This document shows, one piece after another, positions 12,983 through 40,200 of a stretch of DNA of 64,000 bases. Both the position numbers and the translations under genes were made by a program. Positions within the stretch are counted from its first letter, which is position 1; every line of letters starts with the position of its first letter. This DNA comes from Blasia pusilla (taxonomy: Eukaryota): NCBI GenBank assembly GCA_050084515.1, contig CM114271.1, positions 18,786,001 to 18,850,000 on the forward strand, written 5' to 3'. A model generated the notes under the pieces. It saw only the letters and a list, made by a program, of their open reading frames with translations. It did no database searches and was not told the origin of the DNA.

Positions 12983-13726
12983 TGTCGTGCGCATACACAT
13001 CGCTACACAACGTACATGGCTGGTCACATCCACACCACACAACACCGATCTTCCCCACACACGGTAGATCCGCACATGAATAGAAATCAACTCATACATA
13101 TACATGGAGATCACACAACAAAAATAAAGAGTAGTAAAAACGGCAGACCCAGCCTAAAACTCCACTCCTCAATCTCCATCGGCATATCGAGCCTCGTCCA
13201 CCCTGTGCTATCAAGGAATCCAGACGCTAGCACCTAGTTCTAACTCACACACACGAGCAAGAATGGTACTCCAACGGCCCAACATGAAAAAGATGGCTTG
13301 GGAAAGCCATCTTCCTCCCTTATATAGGGTTGGGAAGAGCCAAAAGGCTCTTCCCCTAAACATAGCTATCCTCATGGTAACCTACGCGCACAGGTTACCA
13401 GAGGCAAGTGACTTGCTCAACAAGTCACCCGGCTGTGAAAGACTCCAACAGGAAAGTTGTTAGAAAAGACGTTACTGACACAACGGACCTATCCTCAACC
13501 TCATCCAACACCGCGGGACAAAGTTACACTCAAGAAAGTCCTCTGGCTCCTATGCCCTATCCACGATAGATCTCCGCCTATCGGCTACTCAGATGTGACA
13601 GTTGTCCTGCACATACACATCGCTACACAACATACATCAACACCACACAAAACCGATCTTCCCCACACACGGGTAGATCCACACATGAATAGAAATCAAC
13701 TCATACATATACATGGAGATCACACA
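12983..13726 (-). repeat. 3' terminal A-B-A repeat block of copy 1
   Basis: A' 12983-13117 and A 13603-13726 are ~125-135-bp direct repeats around B (~13120-13600). On the element strand the A/B junction reads GGACA-AC-TGTCA and the terminus ends ...CGACA. The purine tract CCAGCTAGGGGGGCGGT precedes A. Confidence 0.85.
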
Positions 13727-13947
13727 ACCGCCCCCCTAGCTGGCAGTTGGATCCCCCTAACTCCAGATAGAAAATATCACGTCTCCTTGACATGACCTAC
13801 TATCCTATACACATCTCAGACACATCCATCCTCCCATGGGAACTACATCAAGAGGGGGGGTCAGACATCACATATGCCACCCTTGAGAACAACCATCACA
13901 TACCAACACGGTGGTTGCATCCCTCGCAAAGCCCCACAACATACACC

Positions 13948-14850
13948 TCAAGCAGGTATCACTGCCAAGCTCGGATCCACTATCCCATCCACGTTCGCAA
14001 GATGATATGGCGCACAATTACACACATGATCCTTCCAAACCATACAATCCCGTCCCTCCAACATGAGGACTCCGGTCGGTGATACCTCGAGCACATGTAG
14101 GATTATGCGCCCTATAGTGACATCTAGCTTCGTGGGTGCCACCTCTTGTAAATACACGTAATCTCCAGGATGCAACATCCTAATCCCTGGATGATAACCT
14201 CCTCCACGAATGGTCGCGTACCTCAATGTATCTCTATGTTGAGCAATAGCTAAGTTCTCAAAGGCCATAGGCATAACTCTATGAAAAATCTCCGCCCTGT
14301 GAGAACACGCTAGATCATTAAGATCTAACACCTCTGCCATGTAACATCGAATAGCTGCAAGTAAGTCTGGCTCTCTCCCAAAGAGCAAAAAGTATGGTGA
14401 AAATGACGCCAAGGATGTCTGCCAACTAAAGCAATAACCCATAGCCAACCATGGCAACTGTAGGTCCCACTCCCTCAACTGTCTCCGGTGCAAGCCATAC
14501 TTGCGCAATCCTCTCTTCACCGTCTGTACTGCTCTCTCCGCCAACCCATCCGCTTCAAGATGATCTCTGGATGTGGTGCGGTGATCTATCAACGCTTGAT
14601 CACACAAGGCTTGAAACTCTCCCCTGAACTCGGTACCCTGGTCAATCAACACCTCCGCCGTTGCACTAAAGTGACTAAGCACACGATCTAGAAATGCATA
14701 AGTTGTTCCCTCACTCGCCTTGTCCGGTAGTGCCACCCACTCTCTCCACTTGGAGAAATGCTCCATCATGACCAACACGTACATGTGATGATGCCCCATC
14801 ATTGGCAAAGGTCCCGAAAAGTCTAAACTCCACCGATAATCTAAACCCAT
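13948..14850 (-). pseudogene. Copy 1 integrase core (rve), followed by a frameshifted PHD finger at ~13810-13945
   Basis: WSLDFSGP..VLIDQGTEF..EADGLAERAVQTVKR; downstream CMLW...VLVCDGCSQGWHM*CLTPPL..VPMGGWMCLRC. Confidence 0.9.
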
Positions 14851-15364
14851 TTTCATGTCTTTTAGGATAGATCGGTGAAATCTAGTAGAGCGCCTTCATG
14901 AGTAGTGGAGGATAGGCTTAGTAGGTTGATGATGACCCGCTGAGGCCCCGGGAAACATGAGAGAGCAAGTTTCCCCTTTGTTTCCGCTCATTTGGAGCGA
15001 TATTGAGGAACTTACTATTTTAGGTAAGTACCATTTTGAGTATATGATCGACTTTCTATTTTTGTTAAGTGACTCTTGACCTCCTACATCACGTCAAGAG
15101 CCCAGGAGGTGACTTGGGAGAATAGGTTACCATGGAGAGAGCTTGGGAGAGGAGAGGGGTATACCTCAAGGAGAGAGAGCTTAAGAGCTCATTCTCTCTT
15201 TGTTGAATCTCTTGGCATGAGGCATCGCAGCTATGGTCCCTTGCATTGTGAGTGTAACCCAAGCCTCTCATTAGGAGAGTGGGTTTGGTTTGACATGAGA
15301 AAGAGTGCACACCTTTGAGAGCTATGGTGTGAGATGGTGTAGAGAGATATTGGATCTTACTTTA
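14851..15364 (+). repeat. 5' terminal repeat B of copy 2 (~514 bp)
   Basis: Closely similar direct copy of 23901-24410. Neither preceded nor followed by repeat A, and no recognisable tRNA PBS follows it. Confidence 0.9.
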
Positions 15365-18300
15365 CAAAGAGAGAATGAGAGAAAGAGAGAATGAGAGAAT
15401 GAGAGAGTGACAGAGCTTCATGGGGGAGCTGGCTGGTCACTCGCTGTTTTTGCAGGTTGGGGACCGTGTTTCCCATTCAGTGGCTCATGGAAGTGCTCAC
15501 CGGAGCAAGGGCTACTTTGATTGGTCTTTGCATTTGCGAGTTTTTCGTGTGGAAGAGTGGCGCGCGGAAGCGTTGCCCAATTTCTGATAGGGATTGATTA
15601 TGGGGGTGGATTGCCCCATGCTAGTGCTCTCGAGAGCACCATGACGCTTGCTAATGTGTATTTTTACACGTTTCACATTTTGGTTGGGAGTAATCAGCGC
15701 GGAAGTGCTGCCAAATTTTGTGTAGGAGAAAGAGACATTGGGCTTTGTGACAATCCCCGTCAATTTTTACTGAAATGTCCAATTCAAAATATTTTTTGAC
15801 ATTGTCATAGATGGTGAAGCTGTGCACGTGGTGCAACAAACAGTGTGCAATTTGGAGTTACAAGTAAAAAGTTCTGGTCAATCTTGCAAAATTGCCATTG
15901 CTAGGCAATTTTTAGGGTTAAATTGTTCAAACCCTAAACCAACCGCCACGCCGGCGGCGGCCATCGCCGTCATAGTCATAGTCACCGGTCAACGGTCAAC
16001 TTTCATAGTTGACGGTCAACCGACCACCGACCATCGTCGGCCGTTGCCGTTGCCCAGCGTTGCTCAGAGCCGCATTTGGCCGTTGTCCATCCTTTGGTTG
16101 TCATTGCTGACATTACGGAGTGGAGGGTCTTCCAGAACGTTCGTTGATTCTGTGACTTGCGTCACCACCACATACTTTGTTTCGGCCGCCAACGTCATCG
16201 AAGTTTTGTCATCAACCAGTGATGGCATACGACCTCCGGTTATGGTGTTTGAGTTTTGATTTCATGTTGGTATGTTGTGATTGGTAGGTGCTCCACGATG
16301 ATCGAGTACTGTGTCGTGACGCCTGTAGCCGCAACGCGCCGCCGATTGCCGCGCCGTGCCGCTCGTGGCCGCACGGCACCGTCTCGATCGCGGAGCCACA
16401 CCGTCATTGTGGAGCAAAGTGTGGTTTTATTGTTGATGGAGAAGGGTATGCCGCCGAGTGCCGCATCCCACCATCGAGGTTCGTGTCGTTCGTAGCCGTT
16501 CCGTGCCGCCTGCAACGCCGCACCGTTCCCTTGGAATTGCACTGCTTATCGAGGAGTTTTGAGCAGCGTCAGTACAAGAGGATTATGGCTTGCTGATTGG
16601 AGGAGTTGTCTCCACGACCGAGTTGGGGTTGAGATTTGCAGTTGCTGAGGAGCGACATCGACATGTGTTCAGGTTACCCATTCTAGTTCTTTACCCTGCA
16701 CGTGTGAGGGATTCTGGGATTCGGGTAGTTTATTTGGGGATATTGGGTTGTGTGGATGCTAAGAGCATCATTTATGTATGTGGTTTAGGGGACATAGACC
16801 TGTGTGAGATGTCCGGAGTTGAGGGTAGGTTGTCGATGAGATGATAGCCTGGTCGATTTGCCGCACCATGCCGTTTGTTGCCGCACGTTACACGTCTCGG
16901 GGAGGGAGAGTGTAGATCGAGTACCGCATGTTTGGGATGAGTAATTGAGGGATTACTTACGAGGTTGAGAGTGATTGTGTGAGAGGGGCACGAGGACCAT
17001 CACGGCGTCCTTTCAGGATTTTGAGAGACGAGGTAGTGGACCTGAGAGTAGCTCTGGAGGGTTTACCTGGAGTGGTGCGAGGTTTCTAGGGTCTCCACGT
17101 GAGAGACCACCTCGATCTCCTTCTATGTCATCTTCAAACGAGGGGGAACATGTAGAGGAGTGTGTTAGTGATCCACCGTACACATTGAGTAGTCCTACTA
17201 GTTGGGTGTACGAGATGGAGGACCGGGGTAGAGGATCGCGTAGGTTTTCACGAGTTTGGAAGGCGCCCGGATGAGAGTTTGCGTGAGGCTTACACTCGCT
17301 TGCGCTAGTTGATCAACGTCACTCAGGGGGTGACAGGGGCTTAGGCTATCCAATTATGGTACACGATGCTGGACCAAACCCTGCGGACACGGGTGCGGGA
17401 GGGGGTGCTTCTTATGAACACCTCCCCTACGTTGAGAGATGTTATTAGGACCGCCAAGAACATTGAGCGCAACATGGCGGAGGAGAGCGTAGCCACCATG
17501 GGTTATGGGCGAGAGCAGTCACGATTGTCTGCACTACCTGCGCAGCAACGTGGACTGCGAGATAGGTTGACAAGGGCACCACGAGCTTAGGGAGGATACT
17601 GGAAGGCCGTTCCACAGAGACTTGCACCTTCATATGCGGCTCAGCAGCAGCCGCCTACTATTTCTTGTTGGTCATGTGGTGGAGCCCATCATCAGCGCAA
17701 TTGCACTTGTCAGGGTCATGGACATGTGCCTCAACATGGAGGAGGAGATGGTGCTGCACCAGGAGGTTATCTCTGTGACTTTTGTCAGGGGTATGGTCAT
17801 ACACGTGCCAAGTATTTCAATTTACATCTTGAGTTACGTCAAGACCGAGGGCGAGAGAGGGCGCCAGAGCGAGTAGTCGGTCTGGGTGGGCCTAGAGATC
17901 GTGCACCAGGTGGTCCCGTTGGGGGACGAGGAGCTGGAGTTGCCTGACACGGTGGTGGAGCTGCCCGTGGAGGAGGTAGAGTACCACCACCTAGACGCGC
18001 CGAGGGAGACACCGGGCATGAGGCTAGGATGGATGCTCAGATACAACAACTAAACAAGCAGATTGCAGTTATGGCATTGAGGTTACCCGATGCCGGATCC
18101 GTGGCATCGACATCATATGGAGCAACCAGAGATCTGGAGGATCCTGGTTGGATGTGCAAGGTTGCCCAGATGGAGGCAGCCGCAGTTGTGACGCGTGGAG
18201 CAGCCGCAGAGTTTGATCCACAGCGAGGGGAAGCCATGAAACAGACTAGGCTTCCTCAGTCTTTCACGTTGTCCGGGGCGATGAGGACCCCATTGATGGG

Positions 18301-19499
18301 CCCTGATCAGAGTTCTTGGAGAGTTGGTGATGTTGTTGGTGTGCAGGCACTGAGGGCGATGGGAGAAGCGAGTACAATGACTCCTATTGTTGATGCTCAG
18401 GAGGGGCATGTGTCGAGCACGTTGTTGGGGGTGGCCACCGTTGTGTACCGCACTCCTTTATTTTTTGCTTCGGATGTTATGACGTTGGGGGTATGTCCGC
18501 CAAGGCTTTTCGGCTGGCCGCTATGCTATGTGAGCGTGGAGTTCCTCCATCACATTCAGAGGTGATTACAGAGGAGGTGATGGACCTGCCCTTGGAGCGG
18601 ATGCTGAGGCCGTCCATGTCAGATTCATGGCAGGCTCTGATTGCTAGGATGGTGGAGATGCCCGCTAGACCCGCGATAGAGCGTGCCATGGATTCTCTTG
18701 GTGTTGTATTGCTAGATAACCAAGGAGAGGTCTTTTTCAGTTGGTGAGTTCCAGAGGTAGAGCTTTTAGTCCGCAGCATCTTGTTGGATTCTGGAGCGCA
18801 ACCCCTCATGTTGGGGAAAGCGTCATTCAGAGGATTGGGCTTGACGAGAGCCGATGTGGAGCGTTGTCCATTCCGGATACAGACATCCTTGGGTGGAGTG
18901 AGTACCACACAGTATATCACCCGACAGGAGGTCGTGGTGAGGATTTTCCCGGGACATCCTACAGATGAGTCCGTGGTGCGAGTCAAGGCGATAGTGACTG
19001 ATGCAGAGTCCTACGACGTCTTGGTTGGTGGAGCAGTGTTATATCCGATGGGGTTTTCCCTGGATTATTGGGAGGAGTCAGCATCCTACAGACGAGGATG
19101 GAAGTCAGGTGATGGGCGCCTTAGCTCATTACCCGTTCGATTCATAGGTGCAGTGATCGAGCAACGGCCAAGAGAGATGGCGACCTTAGCAGTATTTAGC
19201 AGTGCCATCACTTGGCCTAGTGATTTGATTGAGGGACATGTCCATGTAGAGGATACTCCCATTCCTGACATTTCTATTGAGAGGAGTGTTATGGTAGCCG
19301 CATCATTCCGTGGAGGAGAGATGCCGTTGTGGGGCTCGACTAAGGAGCTTGGACAATTGGCACATGAGCACGTGCAGACCGCGTGGAGCGAGGCGTTTGC
19401 ACCAGAGGGTGACGGGTCTGAGGAACCTAGGGAAGCAAGGAGTGCTACGATGACACCCTTGGATACCACACCCATTGTGTGGTGTATCCCGGAGGAGGG

Positions 19500-20460
19500 T
19501 ATTCGAGTGTTAGATCTCTTTGGAGGGATTAGCATCGAATTAGCTTCTATTTAGCAAGTAGGAGTGCAAGTGCAGTAGTATCTGTATGTGGAGAGTGATG
19601 ATGTTGCGAGGCGCATCTCACCACGACATATGGCGTAGTTATGCCTACGTTTTCTTGACTTATTGTGTGCGTCCGCGGTACACGGATACCAGAGTTCCCT
19701 ACCGAGGAATATTTCCTTGTTAGGGACGCAGGACTTAAAGCGGGTAGGGACCATTGATTTGGTCATTTCCGCTTGGCCATGTTAGGGCCAATCGAGTGCT
19801 GGACGAGGCATCGGGTTGGCTGACACTCGGTCGAGGTTGTTTTGGGAGATGTTGAGGGTCTTACGCCAGTTACAAGAGCACCAGTCTCGTTCTCCAGCCT
19901 ACATTCTGGAGAATGTGCCGATCTTAGGAGACTCCAGGTCACAGGTGGTGACAAGTGGTCATCATGTGCGTGCCTGGATCGGCCTAGCAGCGTTCTTAGA
20001 TGCGGCGAGTGTAGGTTCTAGAGCCCATCGCCCGCGACTATGGTGGACCAACTTGGTGCCCCATGCGGTGTTACGAAGGGCGTATGCGAGAGTGGAGCGC
20101 CCCTCCCATTTGTTAGTGGATTCCATTCTGGATCCAAGTCGTCGCTCACACGCAGTGAGGCACAATGATCGACCACCGTTGACTGTGGTCAATAGGGTAG
20201 GCAAGCGGCGGGTAGCCTTTCCCACGTTTGTGAGTTTTCCCGCTTCCTATGCATACAAGGAGGCCGGTCCTGGCTTGGTTTGGGATGACCAAGTTTAGAG
20301 GTTGGTGGAGCCCAACGCTGACGAGAGAGAGCGGGCCATGGGATTTCCCACAGGAGTGACAGCAGTACCGTCAGTATCAGAGGCATCACGACACCATGTC
20401 TTAGGTCAGGCGATGGACCTCAACTTCTTGACATGGATCTTCAGCTTGGGAGTGGCTGAG
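19500..20460 (+). pseudogene. C5 cytosine DNA methyltransferase domain (DNMT3-like) of copy 2, in frame with the protease
   Basis: Motif I IRVLDLFGGIS, II YVESD, IV AWPC*G, RSRLFWE, VI YILENV, VIII HRPRLWWTNL, IX ERERAMGFP, X HHVLGQAM. Several in-frame stops. ORF 18781-19554 contains both the protease and motif I. Confidence 0.9.
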
Positions 20461-22456
20461 CAGCGTCGGATGAGATCGCGACAGATCACAGTGGTTGCAT
20501 TGGTGAGCCCCATGCCTACCAAGACGGTGGAGGCAGTGGCTGGGGACGAGACCCAAGGAGATCGACACACCAAGGGAGATCGGGAGAGACACCCTTGGAC
20601 TTCTTGGGATGTTTTGCAGGTACGCCAGGAGATGATAGCCACAGCATCGAGCGTGGTTCTGGGGACTGCATGTGGAGGAGATCAGAGTTTGCACTTAGCT
20701 GCAAGAGAGCGGTTGAGTGTCATTTTTTGAGATGGGGTTGCACCATAGCAACCACCGATATCCGCGTCGGAGAGTCCTACCGTAGTCACAATGGAGACTT
20801 GGGAGCTAGATATGGGCCCTAAGTTGACAAGAGGAGAGCGGCGCCAAATACATCAGTTCCTCAGGAGTTAGAGGAGCTGCTTTGCGTTTAGCATGGAGGA
20901 TTTGGGTACGGCGAAGGGACCAGGGATCCGCATTGAGTTGTCGAGTGATACGCCGATCTTCCGACGATCCTACACGTCCAGCGATATGGAGAGGGCTCTA
21001 ATTCAGAGTAGGAGCCAAGACTTGGTCAGAGCAGGACTAGTGGAGATGTCGCATGGGGAGTATGCATCTGCCACTGTCATGCCCACCAAGAAGGATGTGC
21101 ATGGCAACTAGACGAATAGGCGGATGTGTGGGGATTATCGACCGATCAATCGGCAGACGAAGTCCGATATTGATGACATCGTAGTCATCAGCGCTACGGT
21201 TGAGGAGCGTGAGCGACATCTAGAAGAGGTATTTCGACGATTGCAATTACATGGGCTGAAGCTATATCCAGGCAAGTGCAAGTTCTTCTATGACCAGATT
21301 GAGTACTTGGGTCATGCGATATACCTAGGGGGCCTTGATGTTCAGTAGACGAAGATAGAGGCTATCTCATGCATTCCACGCCCTACACATGTGAGCCCAT
21401 GGGATTGGCGAACTTCTATCGGCGGTATGTCAAGGGATTCAGTTTGATTGCGAATCCGCTGACCTTGCTGACCAAGATGGATCACGAGTGGCACTAGGGG
21501 GATGAGCACGAGCAAGCATTTCAATTGCTCAAGGATAGGTTGACGTCTGCGCCCATCTTGAGGAGACCGATCAGGGGGCATCCTTTCCAGTTGCACACAG
21601 ATTGGAGCATGTTGGGGCTTGGAGTGGTGCTCACCCAACATGATGATGAGGGTAGAGAGTTTGTGGTGGCTTACACTAGCCGGTTGAACAACGCTACAGA
21701 GGCAAAGTACAGCTCGTATGAGGATGATTGCTTGGCTGCAGTGTGGGTTATCGCGCATTTCAGGTGTTACTTATTCGGCAACCCCTTTACCATCATCACT
21801 GATCATCAACCACTGAAGTGGTTGATGGAGTCCGACAAGCTTACAGGGAAGCTTGCAAGATGGGCTCTGTTGTTGCAAGAGTATGATTTTCAGGAGGTAC
21901 ATAGACCTGGGATGCTCAACCAGAATGCATATGGGTTGAGTCATAACCTATGCCTGAGTCAACGAGATGCGACTGGAGCTCGATGGCATGGAGAGAGTGA
22001 TGAGGAGTCAGTGCCAGGATGGCACGGATCAGCCTATTTAGGCATGTTGGCTATGGAGAGCCAGAGTGTGGAGACTTCAATGGCGAGGTCAGTGAAGAGT
22101 CCTTGGATCCCCAGGCTAGTGAGGAGACCATAAGTGGCCGAGATATTCATGATGATGGAGTAGTCTTGGAGTACCTTTGTACTAGTAGCGTTGCGAGCAC
22201 CGTGGGTGCTAGAGAGCGGGATCGGATCCTACAGCGGGCCAGACGGTTCCGTTGGGAGGGGACACATGTTTTGAGGGTTTGGGAGGATAGTAGAGTTCGC
22301 ATAGTGCCGCATCCTTTGCAGAGAGCACGACTAGTGTAGCATGCCCATAAGGAGTTGGGTCAATTTGGGATGAAGCGGACGTACAGCTTGCTCTAGATTC
22401 AGTATTGGTGGCGAGGCATGCAGACTGACGTTCAGTAGTTTGTTGCCAGGTGCATA

Positions 22457-23584
22457 GTGTGTGATCAGATCCGAGCATCGTTCAATGCTCCGACTCCACA
22501 GTTGCATCCATTACCGATCATGGACTTAGGATATAGATGGAGTTTGGATTTTGCACGACCTTTGCCTTTGACGGAGCGTCACAGTCGTTATGTGTTGGTG
22601 ATGGTCGAGCACTTCTCGAAGTGGATCGAGTTGGTTGCATTGCCTGACAAAGCGAGTGAGGGAGTAGCTTATGCCTTCCTTGACAGAGTGTTGAGTCATT
22701 ATGGTGCACCGGCTGAGGTTTTGATAGACCAGGGTACCGAGTTTCGCGGTGAGTTCCAGGCCTTGTGTGATCAGGCGCTCATCGACCACTGCACGACCTC
22801 GCGAGATCATCCCGAGGCGGATGGATTAGCAGACAGAGTTGTGCAGACGGTGAAGAGGGGTTTATGCAAGTATGGCTTGCAGAGAGGTCACCTAAGAGAT
22901 TGGGACCTCCAGTTGGCCTGGTTGGCGATGGGATACAGATTCAACGAGCATGCATCCTTAGTGTCTTTTTCACCGTACTTGCTACTTTATGGCCGAGAGC
23001 CAGATTTACCTACGGCCATTCGTCGAGATGCTGGTGAGGTCCTGGACCTTGATGACCTAGATGTATGGATACGAGCATGTTCTCAAAGGGCTGAGTTATT
23101 TCAGAGAGTGATGCCCATGGCATTCGAGAACTTGGTGATTGCGCAGCATCGGGATACATTGAGGTATGCGACTATTCGGGGTGGTGATTATCGACCAACT
23201 ATCCGGAGGTTTCACCAGCGAGATTATGTCTACTTGCAGCAGACAGCACCGATGACGTTGGATGTGACTGCATGGCGCACTATCCCGAGAGTGCGTGACG
23301 CTTTGCCATCCGGTGTTTTCTTGTTGGAGGGACCCGATGGTATGGTATGGAAGGACCATGTGCGTAATTGTGCACCATGTCACCTTCCTAACATTGATGG
23401 TATAGTAGATCCAAGCTCAGTAGTAGTTCTTGCAGGCTTGCGTTGTATGTTGTGTGGTTCTACTCGTGGTGCGGCCAGGATGCTAGTCTGTGATGGATGT
23501 TCGAGAGTTTGGCATATGGCATGTTTGACGCCACCTCCCACTAGGGTTCCTTGGGGACGATGGATGTGTCCCAGATGTACATAG
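22457..23584 (+). CDS. Copy 2 integrase core with C-terminal PHD finger (open part of a disrupted pol)
   Basis: WSLDFARP, LIDQGTEF, EADGLADR, then the C4HC3 motif CMLC...MLVCDGCSRVWHMACLTPP...VPWGRWMCPRC at the C-terminus. Confidence 0.92.
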   Translation: MCDQIRASFNAPTPQLHPLPIMDLGYRWSLDFARPLPLTERHSRYVLVMVEHFSKWIELVALPDKASEGVAYAFLDRVLSHYGAPAEVLIDQGTEFRGEFQALCDQALIDHCTTSRDHPEADGLADRVVQTVKRGLCKYGLQRGHLRDWDLQLAWLAMGYRFNEHASLVSFSPYLLLYGREPDLPTAIRRDAGEVLDLDDLDVWIRACSQRAELFQRVMPMAFENLVIAQHRDTLRYATIRGGDYRPTIRRFHQRDYVYLQQTAPMTLDVTAWRTIPRVRDALPSGVFLLEGPDGMVWKDHVRNCAPCHLPNIDGIVDPSSVVVLAGLRCMLCGSTRGAARMLVCDGCSRVWHMACLTPPPTRVPWGRWMCPRCT

Positions 23585-23772
23585 AGGAGATACTAGGTAG
23601 GTTTCAATTCTGACTCTTTCTGTGACATGGATGATAGGAAGGCGACTAACGATGGGGCCACATGAGCACCCGACCTTTCTGCTCTTAGCGTCCTAGAGAT
23701 GTATATCATGGTAGGTAGGGATAGATGGCTATCTGAAGTTAGAGGGACCTAACCACCAGCTAGGGGGGTGAT

Positions 23773-28068: not shown

Positions 28069-28094
28069 ATGGCATGGATGATACTCGCATCCGT

Positions 28095-29060: not shown

Positions 29061-32000
29061 ACCCTCCTCTCAACACTGCCACACAACGGGTGTGGTATCC
29101 ACTGGGATCAACGTCTCCATTCCAGGAGCCTGATCGCTAGGTGACTCTCGGTGCTCTGGGATAAAGGCATGACTCCACGCCTGCCTCACGAGGTCTTCGG
29201 CACTCCTCTGTAGCTCTCGAGTCGTATCCCAAAATGGTGAAGAGGTCTCGCCAACATGGGAAGAGACACCCGCCATGGCCTGTCTCTCCGTGGGACTATC
29301 CGCTATTGGGACATCCTCCGCATGTGTGTTCCCCTCCTACAACTCTCCTTGCTAGCTAACACTACCTGTGAAAGCTGCCAACGTGGTCACAAACTCGTCT
29401 TGTGCTCGACCACCTCGTCCCGCAAACTGCACAAGTAATTGACTCATCCGCCCGTCACTTGACCGCCACCCTGGCCAATAAGCAACGGTCTCCTCCCATA
29501 AGTCAAAGATGAATCCTAGGGCATATAACATTGTACTCCCCACCAACACAACGTACGACTCAACTGGTGTCGTAATCGCACATGTGCGTACCACAACACT
29601 ATCTGTCGCATGCTCTAGCTGGACTCTGATAATTATCTCTTGTCGAGTCATATACTGCGTGGGTGACACGCCCCAAATCAAGGTTTGTATCTGGAAGGGA
29701 CAAGGCTCAATGTCGGCCTTCCGTAACCCCAACGCTAAACACGCTGCCTTCCCTAACATTAAGGGTTGCGCTCTTGAATAAAGTAGGATGCGTTGCGGGT
29801 GGTATACTGTCCCCGTTGGACTAACCAAGTAAAATACTCTAGCTCGGTTATCCAATAACACTACGCCAGGTGGCATCACTGCTCGCTCTATGGTTGAGCG
29901 ATCTGTCATATTAACCAACTTCGCCACCGCCGCATACCATGACTCTATGGGAGACGTCCCGATCACCTACTCCGAGGGCAAGTCCACCACCTCCTCAAAT
30001 GCCTTTGAACAAGAGGCAGTCACCTCTCCACGCTCATACAACGTGGCGGCCAGCCGGAACACCTCAACTGGTCCAACTCCCAACGTCGCCAACTTTATGG
30101 CGGAAAATAGCAGAGTCTGGCTCACTCTAACGGCTACATCCAACACTATGGTCGACATTGACTCCACTCGAGCCAGCATAGGAGTTGTCACTCCAACTCC
30201 TCATGACATTGACGCATCTATCTGACCTGTAGGCACCGCTGGTCGTCGAGGCACCATCGATGGTGTGTGTAGTGCCTCCGACAATGTGAATGATTGTGGA
30301 ACCCTGGCTTGCCGCCCATTAGACTCCTTTGGTGGGTCAATCTCAACTTCACCTCTGAATGGCTCAAGTGCCTTTCGCAGCATCCCAAGTCACCACTACA
30401 GCAGCCTCAACCTGAGCGACACTACACATATACCCCATACTAGCAAGATCCACACCCGGGTAAGAGGTAGAAGCTGGAGCTCGGTAAGAGATGGAAGTTG
30501 GAGCCACACTAGATGCTCGCGGCTCCGTGCCTTCCCAAAGCTGCATCATCGTCATGGCAACAATCCTCTGCTCCAACTGATCGATGTGTGAAAGAAGTGT
30601 CGGCTCCAGTGCTCCTGCTCCAACTCCTCTGGTGGTGGTCCTCTTCTGTCACGTCCATGAACAACTCCCCAACCTCCTCTAGGACGACCGTCCCTAGGCC
30701 CTCAGCCTACCTCTCGACGTGCCTCTCAACAAAGGTCAAAACATCTATCCCTAGTGTGACCATATCTGTGGCAATAGTCATACTGGTACTGTGTCATGAC
30801 CATACGGATTATGTCGTAGAGTATAGTGTGCTTGTAGAGGCCATACCTTATGAGGGCCATAGTGTCAAGGTAGAGATGCCGTTTCATACGTAGGATTGGG
30901 GGTTACTCAGTTGAGGGTGACTTTTCCAATAGGGCCCGCTCTTAGGTTGGAGGATATAGTGTGGAGTGCACTCAAAGAATAATTAGTCCTTTGAGTTGAG
31001 CTTGTTGCGTTGGGAGTTAGCCTTGGTAGTGAGTAGAGCTCTTGGCTATGGTGGTTCCGTAAGCTTTGACCTAGATTCTCCCATCGTGGAGTGGGTTTGG
31101 CTTGATTTGATGTGATTCTATATGTGTTTTATGACACTAGGTCTTTCACGGATTTCACTCAAAGAACTAGAGTAGATCGATGGTAGCTTCGATTATGGAT
31201 TAGTAGGTTATGATTGATTGTGTACTCAGCCGTGGATGTTCATGAATTTTGGCCTATGTTGGAGGTGGGAATCTGGTGTGTGGTTGGTTGGGAAAGAAGC
31301 GCCTTGCTGAGAGCTTTCCAACGCGCTTTAGATCGCCGGATTTTGTCAATGGAGTTGGAAGTTATCAAGGATTGAAGATTCTGGTTTGTGTTCGACGGTT
31401 TTTTGATGTGGAGAGCTTGGAGTGCGGAAGCTCTGTTGAAGTTCATCTAGATTGGGTGAGAGGTTCCTGTTGCTACTTGTATTGTGATCTCATGTGAAGC
31501 TATGTGCTTGAGTGTGTGGAGCGTTTCCGATTTCTGCGTGCATGAATCTGGGCGGAAGCGCTGTTGGATTTACGATTCTGGAGGTGTATGGACAGCAAGT
31601 TTGTTTGATTTTTAGCTCGGAGTACAGAGCTCTGTTGTAGCAGATTTTTGTGGAGAGATAGCTATGGTGGTTAACTTCGAGGCTTCGAGGCAACTCGTGG
31701 TAGCTTGGGGCGAGTGGGCGTGAGAGGCGGAGCAAGGAGCAAGCAAGCAAGCTTACTTGCTTGGGCGTGAGGCAATTTTTGCAGGATTTGTGATTTGAGT
31801 GTTGCATAACTGGTCACCCATCTTTGAGCTATTCTGCCTGGAAGACGCTTAACTGCCGAGTTCTTAACTATGCCAGTGTACACACTGGTGTAGCTCATTT
31901 GGTGCTGATTGGAGATGTGTTTGGCGCTTTATGCATCTTAGTTTTTTGGTTGATGGACCTCTAACGCATAGTACGGTGTAGCCTCTCCATGCAGGTAATA

Positions 32001-35000
32001 TTTTCAGGTGCTACGTGTCAGACTAGCATGTCATCGACCCGCGGCGGAGTAGCTATTGCGTTAGAATTGTGTGGTGGGTTCTGTGGATTCAGGGGACGCC
32101 ACGTTTGGTGGATTTTGTAACCTTGATTTCCATTTGCGATTGGAGGGTTGTCGTTGGACTTCTTGTGTTTGGATCCCCTCCATCGTTGCTTCTTGCTTGC
32201 GCGCTCATTGTTAGGGTTGAAGCTGATTTCAAGAGTAGTGTTACTCCTGTGTGCTACCGGTAGTGAGGCTGGAGCGATGACCAGTAGACCGTGGGAGGCT
32301 TCTTGTGGTGATGACAGGTTAGGTTGCCTACATCCATAGCTAGTAGAGCTAGAACAGTATAGCGACATCGACGCCATTTGGTTACTTAGTGGTGGTAATT
32401 TGATGGTGGTGCGGCATCGGCGTTGCTCATCACGGAGCTGTCTGGTGGTCAGGTTGGGGACCTTGGTGAGGACAATGGTGGTTTCACACGGAGTGGATTG
32501 AGGTATCGGCTACCTTTTCCACTTCCGACGGTTGATGAAGAGGAGGACGAAGGTGTTCCAAACACCGAGTCTTCTACGTTGTTATTGAGTGTTGCAGCTC
32601 CATTGATTTGGGACATGGACGGGATATATGGGGCCATGAAGGGCCCACGACGATACTCGGGTGCAATGGGCACCATTGAGTTGGAGGACTTCATGCAGGA
32701 GTTTGATACGTGGTGTGATATGCAAATATTGCGGAACTCCACGTTGTTGACATCCTTCTTGGCTTGGAAGGGGTTGTTTCAGCACTTGGAGGGACCACCC
32801 ATGGATGATTACCATGAGTTTAGGAAGGACCATGTTGTTGAGATTGAGGCGTGAAGAAAATATTGGTCTCCAGGCTATGTGTCTATTACCCATGGTGGTA
32901 TTGGTAGTAGTGCTCCTACTATGCCAGCCAACCCGACGTTGAGTGGTACGAGTACGAGACGGAGTGGGGGTACCAGTGGAGGTACCCATGGAGGTACCAG
33001 TGGGGGTACTAGGGGAGGTACTAGTGCCCCACCATCGTTCAGCCCGGTTGCAGAGTTCTTCAAGAGGTTGAAGAAGAACTATCAAGGAGTGAAGATAGAG
33101 AAGTTGAGGAGTCTTCAAGAATTTGAGCGAAAGACTGGTAAGAGTCTTCATGAGGCATACATTCGTATGCGACGCTTGATTTCAGTTACCCAGGATTGAC
33201 TGAGGCTCAGGCAGTCGAGTTTTGGTATGTGATCTTGGATAGAGAGTTGCGTCGTAGGGTACGTGATGCTACTCTTATGAGTGATGATTCACCCACATTG
33301 ACCCATGTGTTTGCTCTATCTGAGAAGATTAAGCTTAACATGGTGAAGGAGAGAGTAGTGACATCCGCATTCAGTAGGGATACAACTACTACTTCTCGTG
33401 TTGAGCAGTCCACCTCATAGTCTCGTAGTAGTGGTGGTGGTAGTAGTAGTGGGAGTCGTGGGGGTACACACGACCTCAGTCAGGTCCTAGAGGGACACTT
33501 GCGCAGAGACCATTGCCTTCATTTGCTGCCCCGCAGCAAGGACAGTCATGTTGGACATGTGGAGGTGATCATGTTAGGAAGTTTTGTCCCCAAGAGGATG
33601 GGAGACGAACTTTGGAGGATGGGCCTCAGTCGGCCCCAAATCAGTGTGATCATTGCAGGAGAGCAGGTCATCCTCGAGAGCGTTGCTTTGATCTTCATCC
33701 AGAGTTGAGATCAAGCCGCGGCCGTGGTGGAGTAGCTCCAAGAGGCCGAGGTGGTAGAGGTGGTAGGGGTGGACCAGTGGTTGGAGAGCCTACTGTGGCT
33801 ACCCCTACCACTACGACAGAGTCAGCAATGACTGCCAAGATTGAGCAATTGGAGCAGAAGTTGGCTACTATGGCACGTATCCAGCATAGATCACGTTCGG
33901 GAGCAGGGGCTTCCACCTCTTATAGACGGGATGATCTCTCTTATATGGCGAGTGCAGCACAGGTTGAGGCATCAGCTGCAGTTTCGAGAGGAGCCACTCG
34001 AGCGTCAGAGCCACATGGAGTTGGATCCACAGAGGGGTGAGGCTGGGAGGCAAGCTAGGCTTCCCCAGTCATTCTTGTTGTCTGAGGTGCTTAGGACTCC
34101 ATCCATAGTTCCTACGTAGCCTATTGAGCTGAAAGTAGAGACTGAGGCATCTACATCGCGTGTAGTAGACACGGATGCAGCATCGAGTGCAATATTGCAG
34201 ATGGCAACTTTAGTGTTGGGATCCCCATTGTTTTTGGCCACGAAGCTGATGGCTTAAGGAGTTGACTTAGCTCCTGTATTTCAGCTAGTAGCCACGTTGT
34301 GTAAACGTGGGGATGTTAGTGCTACACGTGCTGAGGTGGATGAGGATGTTGCGGTGGAGTGACCCTCTATGTCAAGTATAGCATTGAGTACCAGTGCTAC
34401 TTGGCAAGCAGCAACGGCGAAGATGGATGCATTACCAGCCCGGTCAGCCATTGATCGTGAGAGGCTTACACCTCGTGTATGTATGTTGGACAACTGGAGT
34501 GGGATATTCCGATTGGTGAGTCCTACATGACAGGTGTATAGACCATATAGAGTCTTGTTAGACTCTGGTGCCCAACCTTTGATGTTGGGATAGGTGGCAT
34601 GTATTGGTTTGGGTATTCGAACGTCAGAGCTTGAGCCTTGCCCATTCCAGATTCAAACATCACTTGGAGGAGCCAATGATAGGTCTCAATTCATGACACG
34701 GGAGAAGTTTTCTGTATCGTTGAGACTAGATCATGCGACTGATAGCTCCCGGTTGGGAGTACCTGCAGTGGTCACATCAACCGAGTCGTATGATGTACTA
34801 GTTGGAGGAGCAGTATTGTACCCGAGGGGTTTTCAGATGGATTACTAGATTGAGATAGCGTCTTATAGACTTGGTTGGCAGTCCGGGGATGGACGTATGA
34901 GCCAGGTTCCTGTGAGATTTATTTATGGGGCTCGACCAGGAGGGTCTTCCCCAACAGTGTTAGCATCTGTGGTTTGTTTTAGTGGAGTAGTCACTAAGCC

Positions 35001-35269
35001 AAGAGACTTTTTGGAGGGTAATGTTTATGCTATGGATTCTCCTGTGCACGAGGAGGTAGAGGAGGTCCCTAGTTTTGCAACAGTGGCATCCTCATCGTTG
35101 GATGTGCCACTTTGGAGTTCAGGCGGTGCGCTACGGCAAGAGGCTTGGTGTGAGGCTGTTATACCTCAAGAAGAAGAGGAGGCCCTACGGCGGACTCCTA
35201 CTTCTGGTCCAGTTGGGTTATCCCCTTTGGATACTACACCCATTGTATGGCAATATCCGCCGGAGGGCA

Positions 35270-36240
35270 TTTGTGTGTTAGATCTCTTTGGTGGGATTAG
35301 CACCGGTTTGGCTGCAGTGTTGCAAACCGGTATTCCTGTGCAGAGATACGTGTATGTGGAGCGAGATGAGACGGCCTAGAGAGTCTCATCCCGACATATT
35401 GGTCAGTTGATGCGGAAACATCCTGAGTTATTGCCGCCATAAGCTATTCATGGGTACTAGCGTGCTTTGCCGTCACATATTGCATTGTTGGGGGCGCAGG
35501 ACCTTGAGAGGGTTGGTCATGTGGATTTGGTGATTGCTGGATGGCTATTTCAGGGTCATACACATGCTGGTCGTGGTGAGGGATAACATGATCCTAGGTC
35601 TCGATTTTTTTGGGAGATGTTACGGATGTTACGACATCTTCGGGTTCATCAGGCACGTGCTCCAGCTTACATTCTGGAGAATGTTCCATTGTTGGGTGAC
35701 ACTCGGACCCGGATGATGGCGAGTGTTCATGAGGTGCGGTCTTGGATTGGACCAGCGGTGTTGTTGGATGTAGCGCGAGTTGGCTCGCGTGCACATCGTC
35801 CACACTTGTGGTGGACAAAGTTGTTGCCTAGGGAGGTTCTACATCGAGCATATGATGTAGTGCAGTGGGATCCTTGCCTTACAGTGGATAGTAACTTGGA
35901 TACTGAACGACTTTCTCAGGTGGTGAGGGTTATTGATCGGTCACCCATGGCAGTGGTGAATTGTGTGGGCCATCCTAGGATGGCACTACCCATATTTGTG
36001 AGTTTTCCCTCGTCACATGCCTATAGGGAAGGTGGTCCCGGGCTTGTATGGGATTCTCATGTGCGACAGTTGGTGGAGCCTAACGCTGATGAGAGAGAGC
36101 GTGCAATGGGATTTGCTACTGGTGTGACAACGGTTGCTTCCATTTCTGAGGCTTCACGACGTCATGTGTTGGGTCAGGCCATGGACTTAAATTGTTTGAC
36201 TTGGATTTTGAGTCTTGGTATGGCCGAGCATCGTCGACTT
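35270..36240 (+). pseudogene. DNMT3-like methyltransferase domain of copy 3 (catalytic PC mutated to LF)
   Basis: ICVLDLFGGISTG, YVERDE, VIAGWLFQGH, YILENV, HRPHLWW, ERERAMGF, RRHVLGQAM. Confidence 0.9.
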
Positions 36241-36296
36241 CGGACTATGTCTGTGGGTCTTCCACCCCTTGTGATGAGCTCGATGGCTACCGAGAC

Positions 36297-37297
36297 TGTC
36301 GCGACCCTCATGACCAAACAAGTGCCAAGCGGAACATTGGAACATTAGCGGGCTCACGCTAAGATGGTTTGCGCGTTGGAGTTGTCTCAAAGAGGAGACA
36401 AGAGACGAGATGCGAGCGAGAAGTCGCGTTTCAGATGTGATGGTCGCGACTCAGAAACCTGGACCAAACGCGGAATGAGACTTGAAAGAAGTCGAGTCTA
36501 GGAAGTGGGTTGCCAAAGGAAAGATCCGGATTTGGAACGCCACTTGCGTTTGAGAGTTTCCGACTGTATTTATGGCCATAACTTTTAGCGCCAAGATGCG
36601 TTTGGAGCAAATAAGGGTGCGTTGGAAAGCTTATGGAGAGCCGGTCAAAACGCACCAAAGATCGCTGCAAACGCATAAGCAGCGGCCGAGATACGACCCG
36701 AAAACGACTGTAAGTGGAGTCGGGTTGAGGGCCACAATGAAGGGCCCGACCCTCTTTTCCCAAAGGGGAGGGGTTATTGGAGAACCCAGAAGTACTAGTA
36801 AGGGGAAGGTCTCGAGAGTGCTTGGAACCCAAACCCCACTTTGGGCGCCGCGGGGCGGCTCAAGGGCATGGAACGGAACGCGAGTTTGGGCGTTGGGTTG
36901 GAAAACCTGCACCAAGTCCATTGAGGCGATTTTAGACATCCCTCTTGGATTTCACGCCGCGACTCAATTACTTGGGTCTCGGTTCGGAACTCACACGAGG
37001 ACCGTTGAAACAGTTGGGATCGCTAGGCGTGCAAGTGCCGTTTCAGATCCCTGGACTAACCAGGAAGTCTGTTCCAAGTCTTGAAGGACTTGCCATGTTT
37101 TGGAAGCTAGGAACTAAGGAAGGTTGAGCTTGATGAGACGCCGAGTCGAGGACTCGGTGGGTTGGAACGCCGGTTGGCCCAGACCCGACTAACAAGAGTG
37201 CGTGTTTGGGTGCAGATCGGCGATGAGTTTGTGACCTACTGAACGCACGCTTCCGCAACACTAAAGATTGACGTTCAACGGGAGTAGGGGCGCGACA
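36297..37297. mobile_element. Solo LTR (~1001 bp) of an unrelated family inserted in copy 3, between DNMT and RT
   Basis: Termini TGTCGCGACCCT...AGGGGCGCGACA (11/12 inverted). 5-bp TSD GAGAC/GAGAT. The host reading (..MATET / MVEASAGGE..) resumes after it. Confidence 0.85.
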
Positions 37298-40200
37298 GAG
37301 ATGGTAGAGGCATCAGCTGGGGGCGAGGAGAGTAGTATTTTGCATCCTTGGAGTAAATGGGATGTAATGGCTGGGCATGTGGAGTTGGTTGCTCATGTTG
37401 GTGGAGGAGTTATTTGCTCAGGTGATGGTGTAGCTAAGGGTGTACTATCTTGTGAGGGGGTTGCGTAGCAGCCAATGGCATCGTCCTCTCCCTCTAGTGT
37501 GCTAGTGGAGGAGACTTGGGAGCCATTACTTGGGCCCAAGCTTACGCGAGGTGAGAAAGGACGCTTGACAAAATTCCTACGTGCTTATAGGAGTTGTTTT
37601 GCCTTTAGCATGAAGGAGTTGGGTGCTTTGGTTGGACCCGGTATACGGATTGATTTGGCTAGTGATACGCCAATCTTCCGTCCTCCCTACCAATATAGTG
37701 ATATAGAGAGGGACCTGATTCAGAGTAGGACGTTGGACGTTGGACCTTTTGGAGGCTGGATTAGTGGAGTTGTTGCATGGAGAGTATGCATCAGCCACTG
37801 TCATGCCTGCTAAAAAGGATATGCATGCCAACTACACGAATAGGCGGATGTGTGGAGATTACCGTCCTATCAATCGGCAAACCAAGGCCGATAGGTATGC
37901 CATGCCTACACCTGAGGAGATCTTTGATGTGGTGGGACAGGCAAAGATTTTCAGTACTTTGGATCTTCGGGCAGGATACCATGAGTTGCCGATTCGGGAG
38001 AGTGACAAGGCCAAGAAAACATTTTGGGGTGTCAATTCTCATGGCAAGGATTGTTTGTACCAGTGGAAATTCTTACCCTTTGGGTTGAAGAATGCACCTG
38101 CCGAGTTTCAGAGAGTGATGGACAGGATCCTAGCAGGGTTGGATTTTGTTCGGTGTTACATTGATGATCTCTTGGTGTTTAGTAACACGCTGGAGGAGCA
38201 TCAGATACATTTTCAGATTGTGTTTGAGCGGTTGAAAGCTCATGATCTACGTTTGCATCCAGGAAAGTGTAAGTTCTTCCATGAGGATGTTGAGTACTTG
38301 GGTCATGTGATCTATCCAGGTGGTTTGGGATTTCAGCAAGCAAAGGTGGAGGTTATTGCACTTATTCCGCGTCCGGTAGATGTGAGTAGAGTTCGGGCAT
38401 TCATGGGATTGGCAAACTACTATCGGAGGTATGTGAAGGGATTTAGTGATATGGAAAAGACTTTGAACCAATTGCTGAAATCAGATCAAGAGTGGCACTG
38501 GGGAGATGATCAAGAAAGAGCTTTGTGGAGCTCAAGGCCCAGTTGGTGGCGGCGCCTACCTTGAGGAGACCTATCAGAGGGCGCCCATTTCAGTTACACA
38601 CTGATTGGAGTAGGTCGGGACTTGGAGCGGTGTTGACACAACATGATGATGAGCACATGGAGTTTAATTTGTGGTGGCCTATGCAAGTCGTTTGAATAAT
38701 GCAGCGGAGTTGCCCTATAGTTCATATGAGGGAGAGTGCTTGGCAGTAGTGTGGGTTGTGGCACACTTTAGGTGTTACTTGTTTGACACACAGTTTACCC
38801 TTGTTACTGATCACCAGCCGCTCAAGTGGTTGATGGAGTCTGACAAGCTTATAGGGAAGCTTGCACGGTGGGCTCTTATCTTACAGGAGTATGACTTCCA
38901 GGTGGTACATAGACCTGGAGTTTCCAACCTTGATGCTGATGGGTTGAGTAGGAACCCATGTACTAGTCAAGAGGATGCAACTGGGGCTAGATGGCAGGTG
39001 AGGTTGATGAGGAGATGGTGCCAAGTTGGCATGCATCCGCCTTTTTATGTTGGTTAGGGGTGGACTCTAGTATGGAGGACCACATGACATCTTACTCTAG
39101 TCAGAGGATAGATGGCCATCCTTCAGATCCTAACGTTGGAGATGGTGGTACGGATCAGCGTGATATTCATGATGATGCGTTGGTGTTGGAGTTCCTACGG
39201 ACCAGTAGGATGCCAGACATAATGAGTGCCAAGGAGCGAAACCATGTTCTTCAACGTACTAAGAGGTATCGATTGGAGGGACGCACGAGAACAAGACCGG
39301 TGCATCCGGTGTGGACGCAATGTGGGAACCGGTAATAGTGCCACTTGAGTCGTGATAGTTCCGGTGGGGGCCTTTGTAGGGACAATCGTTCCGTCAGGGA
39401 TGACCGACGGCGAGTGTCCCGACATGATTGGGCCGAAGTCCCGCGCTTGCATCGGATGGTGGGGCGGCGTTGAAGGAAGGGAATCTGTGGTTAGGAAGAC
39501 GGACGTGGCAAGACACAGTCGTATACGAATCGGACAACCAATGAAGAGGGGCCGGTGGGGCGGAGTGTGGGGCCCCCGCATCATGGCTTGATTTGATTTG
39601 ATTCACGTGAGATCGCCCGTGTGCATGGGTAACGTTCCCGAGTCGGGACTCGGGACGTTCCGTGCATGATGATCTGGTAGAACCACATGGGTGACCATGA
39701 AGGGGGAAGAGGGGTCCACGACGGCAGTGCCGGATGGTGGGCCGACAGATGGTTGACAGGAGCGCTTTACGGAGTGTGGACACAGATAGGTGGCGCACAA
39801 GAGCCCGTGTCTGTGAGATCTCGTCGACTGGTGTCACTGTCAGATTGCGCTAGTAAGCGCCGTTGAGTCATCAACTCGCCGTCCTCTCCCACTGGAGTCG
39901 ATGATTTTTCTCTGGTTATTTTCGCCGGCGTGGAATACTTGATGTATTTTCCTCTCTGCCTTTCCCAACTGGTGCTGTTGTTTCTGTCTTCCAGAAGAGA
40001 GGTATTTGGGGGCTCTTCTACACCATCCATAAAAAAACCTCTCCGTAAACCCTCTGACCCTCCTAACACAACACCTACACTTCATCACACGGGAGGGACC
40101 CGTGAGGTTTACAGGATTTTTCGACCCCTGGACGACCGGCGAGTCGACCTTCCTGCCACACTTCGTGCAAGACGCGAAATTTGGATAATTTGGACTTTTT

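Follow-up and report, generated by a model that had tools for sequence, protein, structure and literature searches.

Hosts fight transposons chiefly by cytosine methylation, and a transposon that encodes a de novo cytosine methyltransferase of its own is a paradox. The question is raised in a land plant by a window of 64,000 nucleotides (nt) from Blasia pusilla (assembly GCA_050084515.1, contig CM114271.1, positions 18,786,001 to 18,850,000), the whole stretch of DNA analysed here, in which three copies of a Gypsy-like retrotransposon, elements A, B and C below, each carry a domain resembling the methyltransferase DNMT3 inside the Pol polyprotein. Is this domain an inherited part of the family, where does the family belong, and what could a retrotransposon gain from such an enzyme? 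Our reading is that the window holds three dead copies of a Ty3/Gypsy family from the bryophyte branch of a streptophyte Gypsy-DNMT3 lineage, to which we give a probability of roughly 0.85. Since 2018, the paradox has rested on two algal cases, the Gypsy one without detected activity; what the window and its relatives add is that land plants, too, harbour the Gypsy-DNMT3 lineage, which has persisted in them under selection and is transcribed.

Three copies at two loci

Element B (14851-24539, + strand) is complete but dead, and self-blastn places it inside the integrase of element A, whose homology is continuous across the 14850/24540 junction; B is therefore nested within A's integrase. The termini of B are near-inverted (TTTCATG...CATGACA), and CCAT flanks it on either side, at 14847-14850 and 24540-24543, which shows that B integrated with a 4-bp target duplication. 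Element A lies on the - strand in two parts, the 5' part from 24540 to about 30800, which holds the protease-like region and DNMT, then an additional segment of about 1.3 kb, reverse transcriptase (RT) and RNase H, and lastly the first portion of the integrase, and the 3' part at 12983-14850, with the integrase core, a PHD finger and terminal repeats. Element C (about 33100-39281, +) runs from the gag knuckles to RNase H, as seen by Pfam, tblastx against B and motifs, and ends short of the integrase, with its last homology to B in tblastx at about 39281. The three copies are thus two separate loci plus one nested insertion, and the span of 12983-39280 given in a preliminary description of this DNA fits them, 12983 being A's 3' terminus, which matches the terminus of B, and about 39281 being C's last homology.

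Instead of two full long terminal repeats, B has split direct repeats in the layout A1-coding-B1-A2-B2. Repeat A1, the 5' terminal direct repeat (14853-15364, +), is matched at 91.6% in blastn by repeat A2 (23903-24410, +), with a Kimura two-parameter distance of 0.081 over 508 aligned nt, and repeat B1 (23771-23896, +) is matched at 92% by repeat B2 (24410-24537, +), which forms the 3' terminus; A2 and B2 were delimited by self-blastn. The 3' end of element A has the same B1-A2-B2 layout on the - strand, with B1 at 13591-13728, matched at 85% by 12969-13119 (blastn), A2 at 13120-13590 between B1 and B2, and B2 at 12983-13119, ending in the terminus shared with B. A purine run, AGGGGGG, stands ahead of B1 in element B and is conserved in A, and the sequence CAGCTAGGGGGG upstream of B1 is common to both. 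The 3' end of B reads ..CA, and its 5' end reads TT where TG is expected. A 5' repeat of A was not found, 13120-13590 being without a second copy anywhere in the window; terminal repeats of C were likewise searched for in the window and none were found, which leaves its 5' end undefined.

As seen in Pfam scans of frames read through with each stop entered as X, and of the window's open reading frames (ORFs), together with pattern and motif scans, the Pol polyprotein of the family has the order gag (CCHC), protease, DNMT3-like methyltransferase, RT, RNase H, integrase and PHD finger. The preliminary description had called the family Gypsy-like, and RVT_1, RT_RNaseH, Integrase_H2C2 and rve do follow one another in Gypsy order in B and A. 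The gag zinc-knuckle region of B (17666-17815, +) has one CX2CX3HX4C pattern and a degenerate second knuckle, and zf-CCHC is present upstream of the DNMT in the relatives P0088, P0013, P0028 and P0322. The protease-like region of B (18748-19446, +), recognised in the motif scan by LLDSGAQP at 18781-18804, matches residues 598-714 of P0088 in phmmer, where Pfam places Asp_protease_2 at 598-691; the place of the protease in the order is read from this homology between the D-S-G region and the Asp_protease_2 zones of relatives. A single ORF of B, 18748-19554, covers both the D-S-G motif and DNMT motif I, bearing out the earlier claim that the DNMT shares the protease reading frame in one copy.

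The DNMT3-like C5-methyltransferase domain of B, recognised by PF00145, follows at 19447-20475 (+), with 5 in-frame stops, one of them within PCQ. Next comes an RT remnant (20785-21321, +) in which RVT_1 covers profile positions 153-205 of 205 only; B has an internal RT deletion of 268 nt, and its tblastx offsets against A and C shift at 21169. DNMT and RT remnant are in one frame in B. RNase H (21501-21884, +) is matched by RT_RNaseH (E 2.8e-33) and RT_RNaseH_2 (E 4.9e-28), the integrase (22319-22813, +) by the Integrase_H2C2 zinc finger (E 9.9e-12) and the rve core (E 4.2e-12), and the PHD finger at its C-terminus (23444-23578, +) by the PHD family (E 2.2e-10), with rve and PHD in one intact ORF of 381 amino acids (22439-23581).

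In A, on the - strand, the DNMT3-like domain, matched by PF00145, lies at 28085-29237, with PCQ intact, 4 stops and one frameshift, followed by RT at 25751-26221 (RVT_1), RNase H at 25265-25564 and Integrase_H2C2 at 24592-24720, all by Pfam, and, beyond the insertion of B, by the integrase core at 14569-14838 (rve, E 5.3e-11) and the PHD finger at 13811-13921 (E 7.2e-8). In C, on the + strand, gag knuckles at 33549-33686 (pattern scan) and a protease-like region at 34555-34578 (motif scan) precede the DNMT3-like domain at 35224-36252, which has 4 stops and in which the PC of motif IV is replaced by LF; RT follows at 37833-38312 and RNase H at 38510-38892 (Pfam). In all three copies, as had been described, the DNMT occupies the same position, between the protease-like D-S-G region and RT.

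Extra segments of 1.0-1.3 kb stand between DNMT and RT in A (26780-28085, -) and C (36273-37343, +), at the same spot, mutually dissimilar, and without a counterpart in B (tblastx). That of C is bounded by 22-nt inverted arms that are 77% complementary, enclosing about 1 kb (36287-37307), and is possibly a secondary insertion; the same repeat search found no inverted arms around the segment of A. Two independent insertions at one DNMT-RT linker would be a coincidence. A fast-evolving native linker is an unlikely origin of the two segments, since the Marchantia protein P0286 has short DNMT-RT spacing like that of B.

The methyltransferase domain and its inheritance

A six-frame motif scan places the methyltransferase motifs at about 19510-20415 (+) in B, 35278-36183 (+) in C and 28973-28145 (-) in A. 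Motif I reads LDLFGGIS in B and C and LEFFGGIS in A, motif II YVERD in A and C and YVESD in B, motif VI ILENV throughout, motif VIII HRPRLWW in B, YRPRLWW in A and HRPHLWW in C, motif IX ERERAMGF in B and C and ERKHAMGF in A, and motif X LGQAM throughout, while motif IV is intact as WPCQG only in A, B having a stop at the Q codon and C reading WLFQG. The preliminary description had credited every copy with the full motif set, and of this claim the part that stands is that all motif positions are present, in an order that alignment shows to be unpermuted in all three copies; the motif forms it listed are not in every copy, as motif IV makes plain. Its remark that every copy is disrupted is borne out by the 5 stops in the DNMT of B, the 4 in that of C, and the 4 plus a frameshift in that of A.

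Against the PF00145 gathering cut-off of 22 bits, B scores 30.3 bits (E 3.7e-7) and A scores 27.7 bits (E 2.4e-6) on ORF 28587-29069 and 21.9 bits on the whole frame, where the match is placed at 28620-28814; the PF00145 match that had been proposed as a check is thus present above the cut-off in two copies. The DNMT of C is 61% identical in amino acids to that of B over 352 residues, 57-61% identical to those of A and B in tblastx, and 75% identical to the Marchantia homologue P0279.

Which methyltransferase this domain most resembles can be asked by sequence, by profile and by fold. In a phmmer comparison of the B domain with the PDB, DNMT3A comes first (2.5e-10), with DRM2 (3e-3) and HhaI behind, and a profile built from 18 sequences finds DNMT3A at 6.5e-26, DNMT3B at 9e-24, DNMT3C at 2e-23, DRM at 8e-17, and HhaI and DNMT2 at about 3e-10 to 4e-10, with no DNMT1 or CMT chain among its PDB matches at E<=0.01. 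An AlphaFold model of the B domain, with stops as X, has a pLDDT of 90.5, and in Foldseek all rows listed to rank 47 are DNMT3A, B or C, with a TM score on the target of 0.78-0.82 for methyltransferase-domain chains. DNMT3A/B/C thus head the PDB rankings in sequence, profile and fold, as the name DNMT3-like had implied, and the comparisons support a domain closer to DNMT3 than to DRM, DNMT1/CMT, DNMT2 or bacterial methyltransferases, although the name stands for a ranking among PDB and fold matches and not for a phylogenetic placement, which counts against taking it too literally. The motif order is that of DNMT3 and not the rearranged order of DRM. The domain is only about 20% identical to cellular DNMT3A/B/C and, unlike them, is embedded in a retrotransposon polyprotein, and Pfam finds no PWWP or ADD beside the methyltransferase in the window copies, its flanks being protease and RT.

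Relatives that are stop-free in the aligned stretch, from Marchantia, Calypogeia, Klebsormidium, Closterium and metagenome sequences, keep FxG, PCQ, ENV, RxR, ERERAMGF and LGxAMD, and E155, N156, H194, W200 and G320 are invariant in the 18-sequence alignment. Selection can also be read from the window itself. By pairwise Nei-Gojobori (NG86) estimates on gap-free tblastx blocks, the DNMT dN/dS is 0.155 between B and C (343 codons), 0.187 between B and A (373) and 0.223 between A and C (341), values that are rough, dS being saturated (1.4-2.3), a weakness of the case, though they are far from 1, the ratio that the preliminary description had named as contrary to its view. The corresponding pN/pS is 0.34-0.41, with bootstrap limits of 0.30-0.47, and RT-RNaseH has a dN/dS of 0.10-0.16. 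From DNMT ratios of 0.16-0.22 beside those of RT-RNaseH, we infer that the DNMT has been kept by selection in the family.

The three DNMT regions are 65-67% identical in DNA (blastn). A domain that keeps its place and frame in copies as diverged as these, and that dozens of relatives from other species share, has been inherited as part of Pol, as had been proposed. The copies differ at about one-third of DNMT nucleotides and the repeats of B at 8%, from which it follows that the lineages were still replicating during most of their divergence.

At the far end of Pol, the PHD finger is the only histone-reader-like domain in the family. Its best PDB matches, starting from the copy in B, are PHF12, CHD4, KDM5B, KDM5A (PHD1), PHF21A, DPF2/3, KAT6A, AIRE and UHRF1, with E-values from 4e-14 to about 1e-8, and several PHD fingers of the PHF12, CHD4, KDM5A/B and PHF21A type read unmethylated H3K4. 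Chromoviruses are Gypsy elements with a chromodomain on the integrase, and the window family is like them in having a chromatin-reader domain at the integrase C-terminus, presumably guiding integration, but unlike them in that the reader is a PHD finger.

Relatives in bryophytes and algae

Relatives of the domain are numerous. When 1.84 billion representatives were scanned by HMMER with the B domain, 2867 proteins passed E<=1e-3 and 202 passed E<=1e-30, many of the matches sitting within proteins of 1000-3400 residues, and a search with the C domain found 224 homologues at E<=1e-8. Of 37 matches in one set, 15 come with a named organism (12 Marchantia polymorpha, 1 Calypogeia, 1 Sphagnum and 1 Closterium), the 12 M. 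polymorpha gene models having 52-65% identity; the cluster of Mp_4g09160 from this species has 18 members, and near-identical copies stand in M. polymorpha gene models of 1151-1333 amino acids. Among the 120 matches listed of the 224 found with C, all 14 with an organism name are from bryophytes (5 M. polymorpha, 1 M. paleacea, 1 Riccia, 4 Calypogeia and 3 Sphagnum). Named relatives thus include M. paleacea, Riccia sorocarpa, Calypogeia fissa and three Sphagnum species, with the algae Closterium NIES-53 and NIES-68 and Klebsormidium nitens (GAQ93235.1, the protein P0088 above), and no vascular plant is among the matches listed. The bryophyte relatives stand in public annotations as hypothetical proteins, unremarked.

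Two arrangements of Pol carry such a domain. Of 193 related proteins examined by phmmer with the domains of the window, 52 have the DNMT between protease and RT, as here, 78 have it between RNase H and integrase, and 63 are unassigned; Pfam on full-length examples confirmed both orders. In a FastTree tree of 173 DNMT rows the two orders are sister clades of 63 and 110 rows (SH-like support 93), with one long-branch exception, P0313, and a 43-row IQ-TREE tree gives the same split a Shimodaira-Hasegawa-like approximate likelihood ratio test (SH-aLRT) support of 97. These trees are built from such DNMTs, without canonical DNMT1, CMT, DRM or DNMT3, and are rooted on the other architecture type.

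Within the protease-DNMT-RT clade of the 43-row tree, K. nitens and Closterium are the deeper branches and 12 rows form a bryophyte clade that includes all three window copies (SH-aLRT 97). M. polymorpha (8 rows), Sphagnum (4) and 4 of the 5 Calypogeia rows have groups of their own in it. The three window copies do not group together, from which it follows that the genome holds at least 3 old subfamilies. The Sphagnum rows P0306, P0329, P0333 and P0383 group with M. polymorpha copies and window copy C, to the exclusion of M. paleacea, Riccia and Calypogeia, at a weak SH-aLRT of 89, and this placement suggests either the sorting of old subfamilies or transfer between bryophyte lineages.

The other arrangement has a homologous DNMT, 31-41% identical to that of the window across assigned matches. 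It is unlike the window family in placing this DNMT between RNase H and integrase and in forming the sister clade. Several of its members have a PHD finger after the integrase, and many lie on metagenome contigs. Scenedesmus is the only named organism with this type, through the 'pol' protein KAF8056149.1 of Scenedesmus sp. PABB004, whose DNMT is 37% identical and whose order is RNase H-DNMT-integrase. In two full-length protease-DNMT-RT metagenome proteins scanned by Pfam, no PHD finger follows the integrase.

The closest described counterpart of the window family is KnitGypsy-Dnmt3 of K. nitens, reported to have a Dnmt3-related domain in a Gypsy Pol with a Ka/Ks below 0.2 (de Mendoza et al. 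2018, PMC5890265; here and below, statements on this paper refer to the portions of it available to us). The legend of its Fig. 4c draws the repeats as A-coding-B-A-B, 'of a DIRS retrotransposon', its tree places the K. nitens element DNMTs in a divergent Dnmt3-related clade, and the acquisition is assigned to 'the K. nitens lineage'. The window family shares with this element a Gypsy Pol that includes a Dnmt3-type domain with unpermuted motifs, the A-coding-B-A-B layout (in B, and as B-A-B at the 3' end of A) and a low DNMT ratio (0.16-0.22 here). In one K. nitens protein, GAQ93235.1, zf-CCHC is followed by Asp_protease_2 and then by DNMT, and its DNMT belongs to the clade of the window copies. 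Every feature of the KnitGypsy-Dnmt3 lineage that could be tested is thus found in the window family. The differences are that the host here is a land plant and not a charophyte alga, that the window DNMT is only 33% identical to that of GAQ93235.1, that the bryophyte copies form a clade of their own, and that the integrase of the window family has a C-terminal PHD finger, the word 'PHD' being absent from the main text of PMC5890265; in addition, that paper speaks of few K. nitens copies, whereas sequencing reads suggest an abundant family here.

The second algal case, SymbioDIRS-Dnmt3 of Symbiodinium, is held in the same paper (PMC5890265) to be an independent acquisition, and its domain methylated CG de novo in yeast. 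It too has a Dnmt3-type domain in Pol and split direct repeats, but it belongs to the DIRS elements and has a tyrosine recombinase, unlike the window family with its DDE integrase and 4-bp target duplication.

How much of this is new? The preliminary description had presented the domain as foreign to the standard land-plant lineages, and a full-text search, to which subscription journals, figures and supplements are outside, found no paper on bryophyte Gypsy-DNMT3 elements; the accessible text of PMC11982613, PMC8616336 and PMC6453930 holds nothing on land-plant Gypsy-DNMT3, and the accessible part of a 2026 preprint (10.64898/2026.05.21.726589) mentions 'streptophytes (Gypsy-DNMT3)'. Its novelty was nevertheless overstated, given that the family is of the same lineage as the Klebsormidium element it cited and has relatives in public databases. 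The kind of element is already known from KnitGypsy-Dnmt3, and what is new is the PHD finger on the integrase and the sense transcription of related copies. An ancient Gypsy lineage may have brought its DNMT3-type writer along from algae of Klebsormidium grade to the bryophytes, where it also bears on its integrase a PHD reader that may recognise unmethylated H3K4 and where it is still abundant and transcribed in liverworts, a history that we offer at odds somewhat short of even.

Transcription and the possible role of the domain

Sequencing runs were aligned to 9400-23700 at a likeness of at least 85%, the species label being that of the best-matching DNA runs. In three stranded RNA runs, the sense strand of B is covered to a depth of 36-69 in the DNMT bins and 88-155 in the RT-integrase bins, and the sense strand of A to 8-24. 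The host gene ESF1 is covered to 3-36 on its own strand, which confirms the reading of the strands. About 8% of the aligned RNA reads are at least 95% alike and about 92% fall under 95%, from which it follows that the transcripts come from related copies and not from the window loci. Loose ends of RNA reads run into the RT segment deleted from B (21169) and, beyond motif I (19534), into a form of the sequence free of stops, and at one stop of B another letter is read in 39 of 40, 29 of 29 and 42 of 43 RNA reads. Related copies are thereby shown to be transcribed in sense, which is no proof of transposition. A low-coverage DNA run gave 31,220 short contig pieces on 9400-23700, which is not a copy number, and its summed word depth of 2,800-25,900 over 12739-23700, versus 0-2 on ESF1, suggests that the family is very abundant.

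A stretch of 795 nt spanning the RT-RNase H junction (20909-21705) is skipped by 14, 23 and 12 reads in the same three RNA runs. Four other letters stand between the joined parts, and the ends are GG..CA; this is not a canonical intron, and it has no support from DNA contigs. Either a template switch or a deletion derivative in the pool of transcribed relatives could explain it.

Several observations weigh against the reading of the window copies as members of a Gypsy lineage with an inherited DNMT3-type enzyme. The DNMT bins are covered in RNA and DNA to about half the depth of the RT-integrase bins, which could reflect lower conservation of the domain or family members without it. The copies themselves are all broken, with the catalytic PCQ lost in B and C, and C has no PF00145 match in either its read-through frame or its ORFs. 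Gag and protease go unrecognised by Pfam on the window ORFs, and reading the sequence after A1 revealed nothing tRNA-like that would serve as a primer binding site, no further search for one having been made. The observed/expected ratio of CpG is 0.61-0.79 in the elements and 0.43-0.78 in their flanks, and with ratios so alike there is no signature of special methylation.

If the reading of an inherited Gypsy-DNMT3 family holds, then the methyltransferase would be made as part of Pol, stay with RT and integrase, and methylate the element's new cDNA or its fresh insertion, with CG as the likely context by analogy with SymbioDIRS-Dnmt3. The PHD finger of the integrase would tether the integration complex to chromatin with unmethylated H3K4, and PHD and DNMT in one polyprotein would repeat the reader-plus-writer logic of cellular DNMT3 (ADD plus methyltransferase). 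Reader and writer would then be split across one polyprotein, and integration may be aimed at chromatin without H3K4 methylation. This mechanism as a whole, methylation of cDNA or insertion by a Pol-borne enzyme together with targeting by the PHD finger, is a tentative proposal that we think has something over one chance in three of being right. The window copies can no longer perform any of its steps.

Mutants, methylomes and transformation exist for Marchantia polymorpha, and if the history proposed above, of a Gypsy lineage carried from algae into bryophytes, is right, then the role of a transposon-encoded DNMT would be genetically testable in a tractable land plant. In that case the elements could also contribute to the unusual methylation machinery of bryophytes, or have swapped domains with it.

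An active enzyme could instead act mainly in trans or as self-restraint, methylating host DNA or resident copies, slowing transposition and altering chromatin, a possibility raised in the available Discussion of PMC5890265. A diffusible enzyme could matter in a family that appears abundant and transcribed, but the position of the domain in Pol, next to RT, would favour action in cis, in the particle or the pre-integration complex, and we regard a main role in trans as unlikely, at about one chance in five.

Somewhat less likely still is a domain that is under selection without being a DNA methyltransferase, a pseudo-enzyme or scaffold serving Pol folding, processing, or the binding of DNA or chromatin. 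Two of the three window copies lack PCQ, and the KnitGypsy-Dnmt3 domain produced no methylation in yeast (PMC5890265), which also speaks against our reading of an enzyme; the authors called that negative inconclusive, however, because DNMT3B failed too. The PCQ losses sit in copies that are dead anyway, and stop-free relatives retain the catalytic motifs, with E155, N156, H194, W200 and G320 invariant.

That the DNMT reflects an isolated capture, a chimeric assembly or a host DNMT3 fragment nested in one Gypsy copy is highly improbable, for although nesting does occur in the window, B lying inside A, three copies of 65-67% DNA identity have the domain in the same place and frame, its dN/dS is 0.16-0.22, the protease-DNMT-RT order recurs in 52 of 193 related database proteins, and a single ORF of B covers protease and DNMT.

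Around these copies of the Gypsy-DNMT3 family lie other genes and fragments. ESF1, a host gene for pre-rRNA processing with a NUC153 domain, occupies 9476-12112 on the - strand in two large exons, its 5' end and the terminus of element A being under 1 kb apart, and its product is 62-63% identical to those of Riccia sorocarpa and R. fluitans, 49% to that of Sphagnum and 37-47% to those of vascular plants, a ranking that points to a liverwort as the host. At 2470-3627 (-), two adjoining ORFs with one stop between them match DDE_Tnp_4 (E 3e-14 and 1.8e-6) and look like a PIF/Harbinger-type transposase remnant. Downstream of element C, at about 43740-44000 (-), a Myb/SANT-like domain (Myb_DNA-bind_4, E 1.3e-11) could belong to a host trihelix-type gene or to a Harbinger second ORF.

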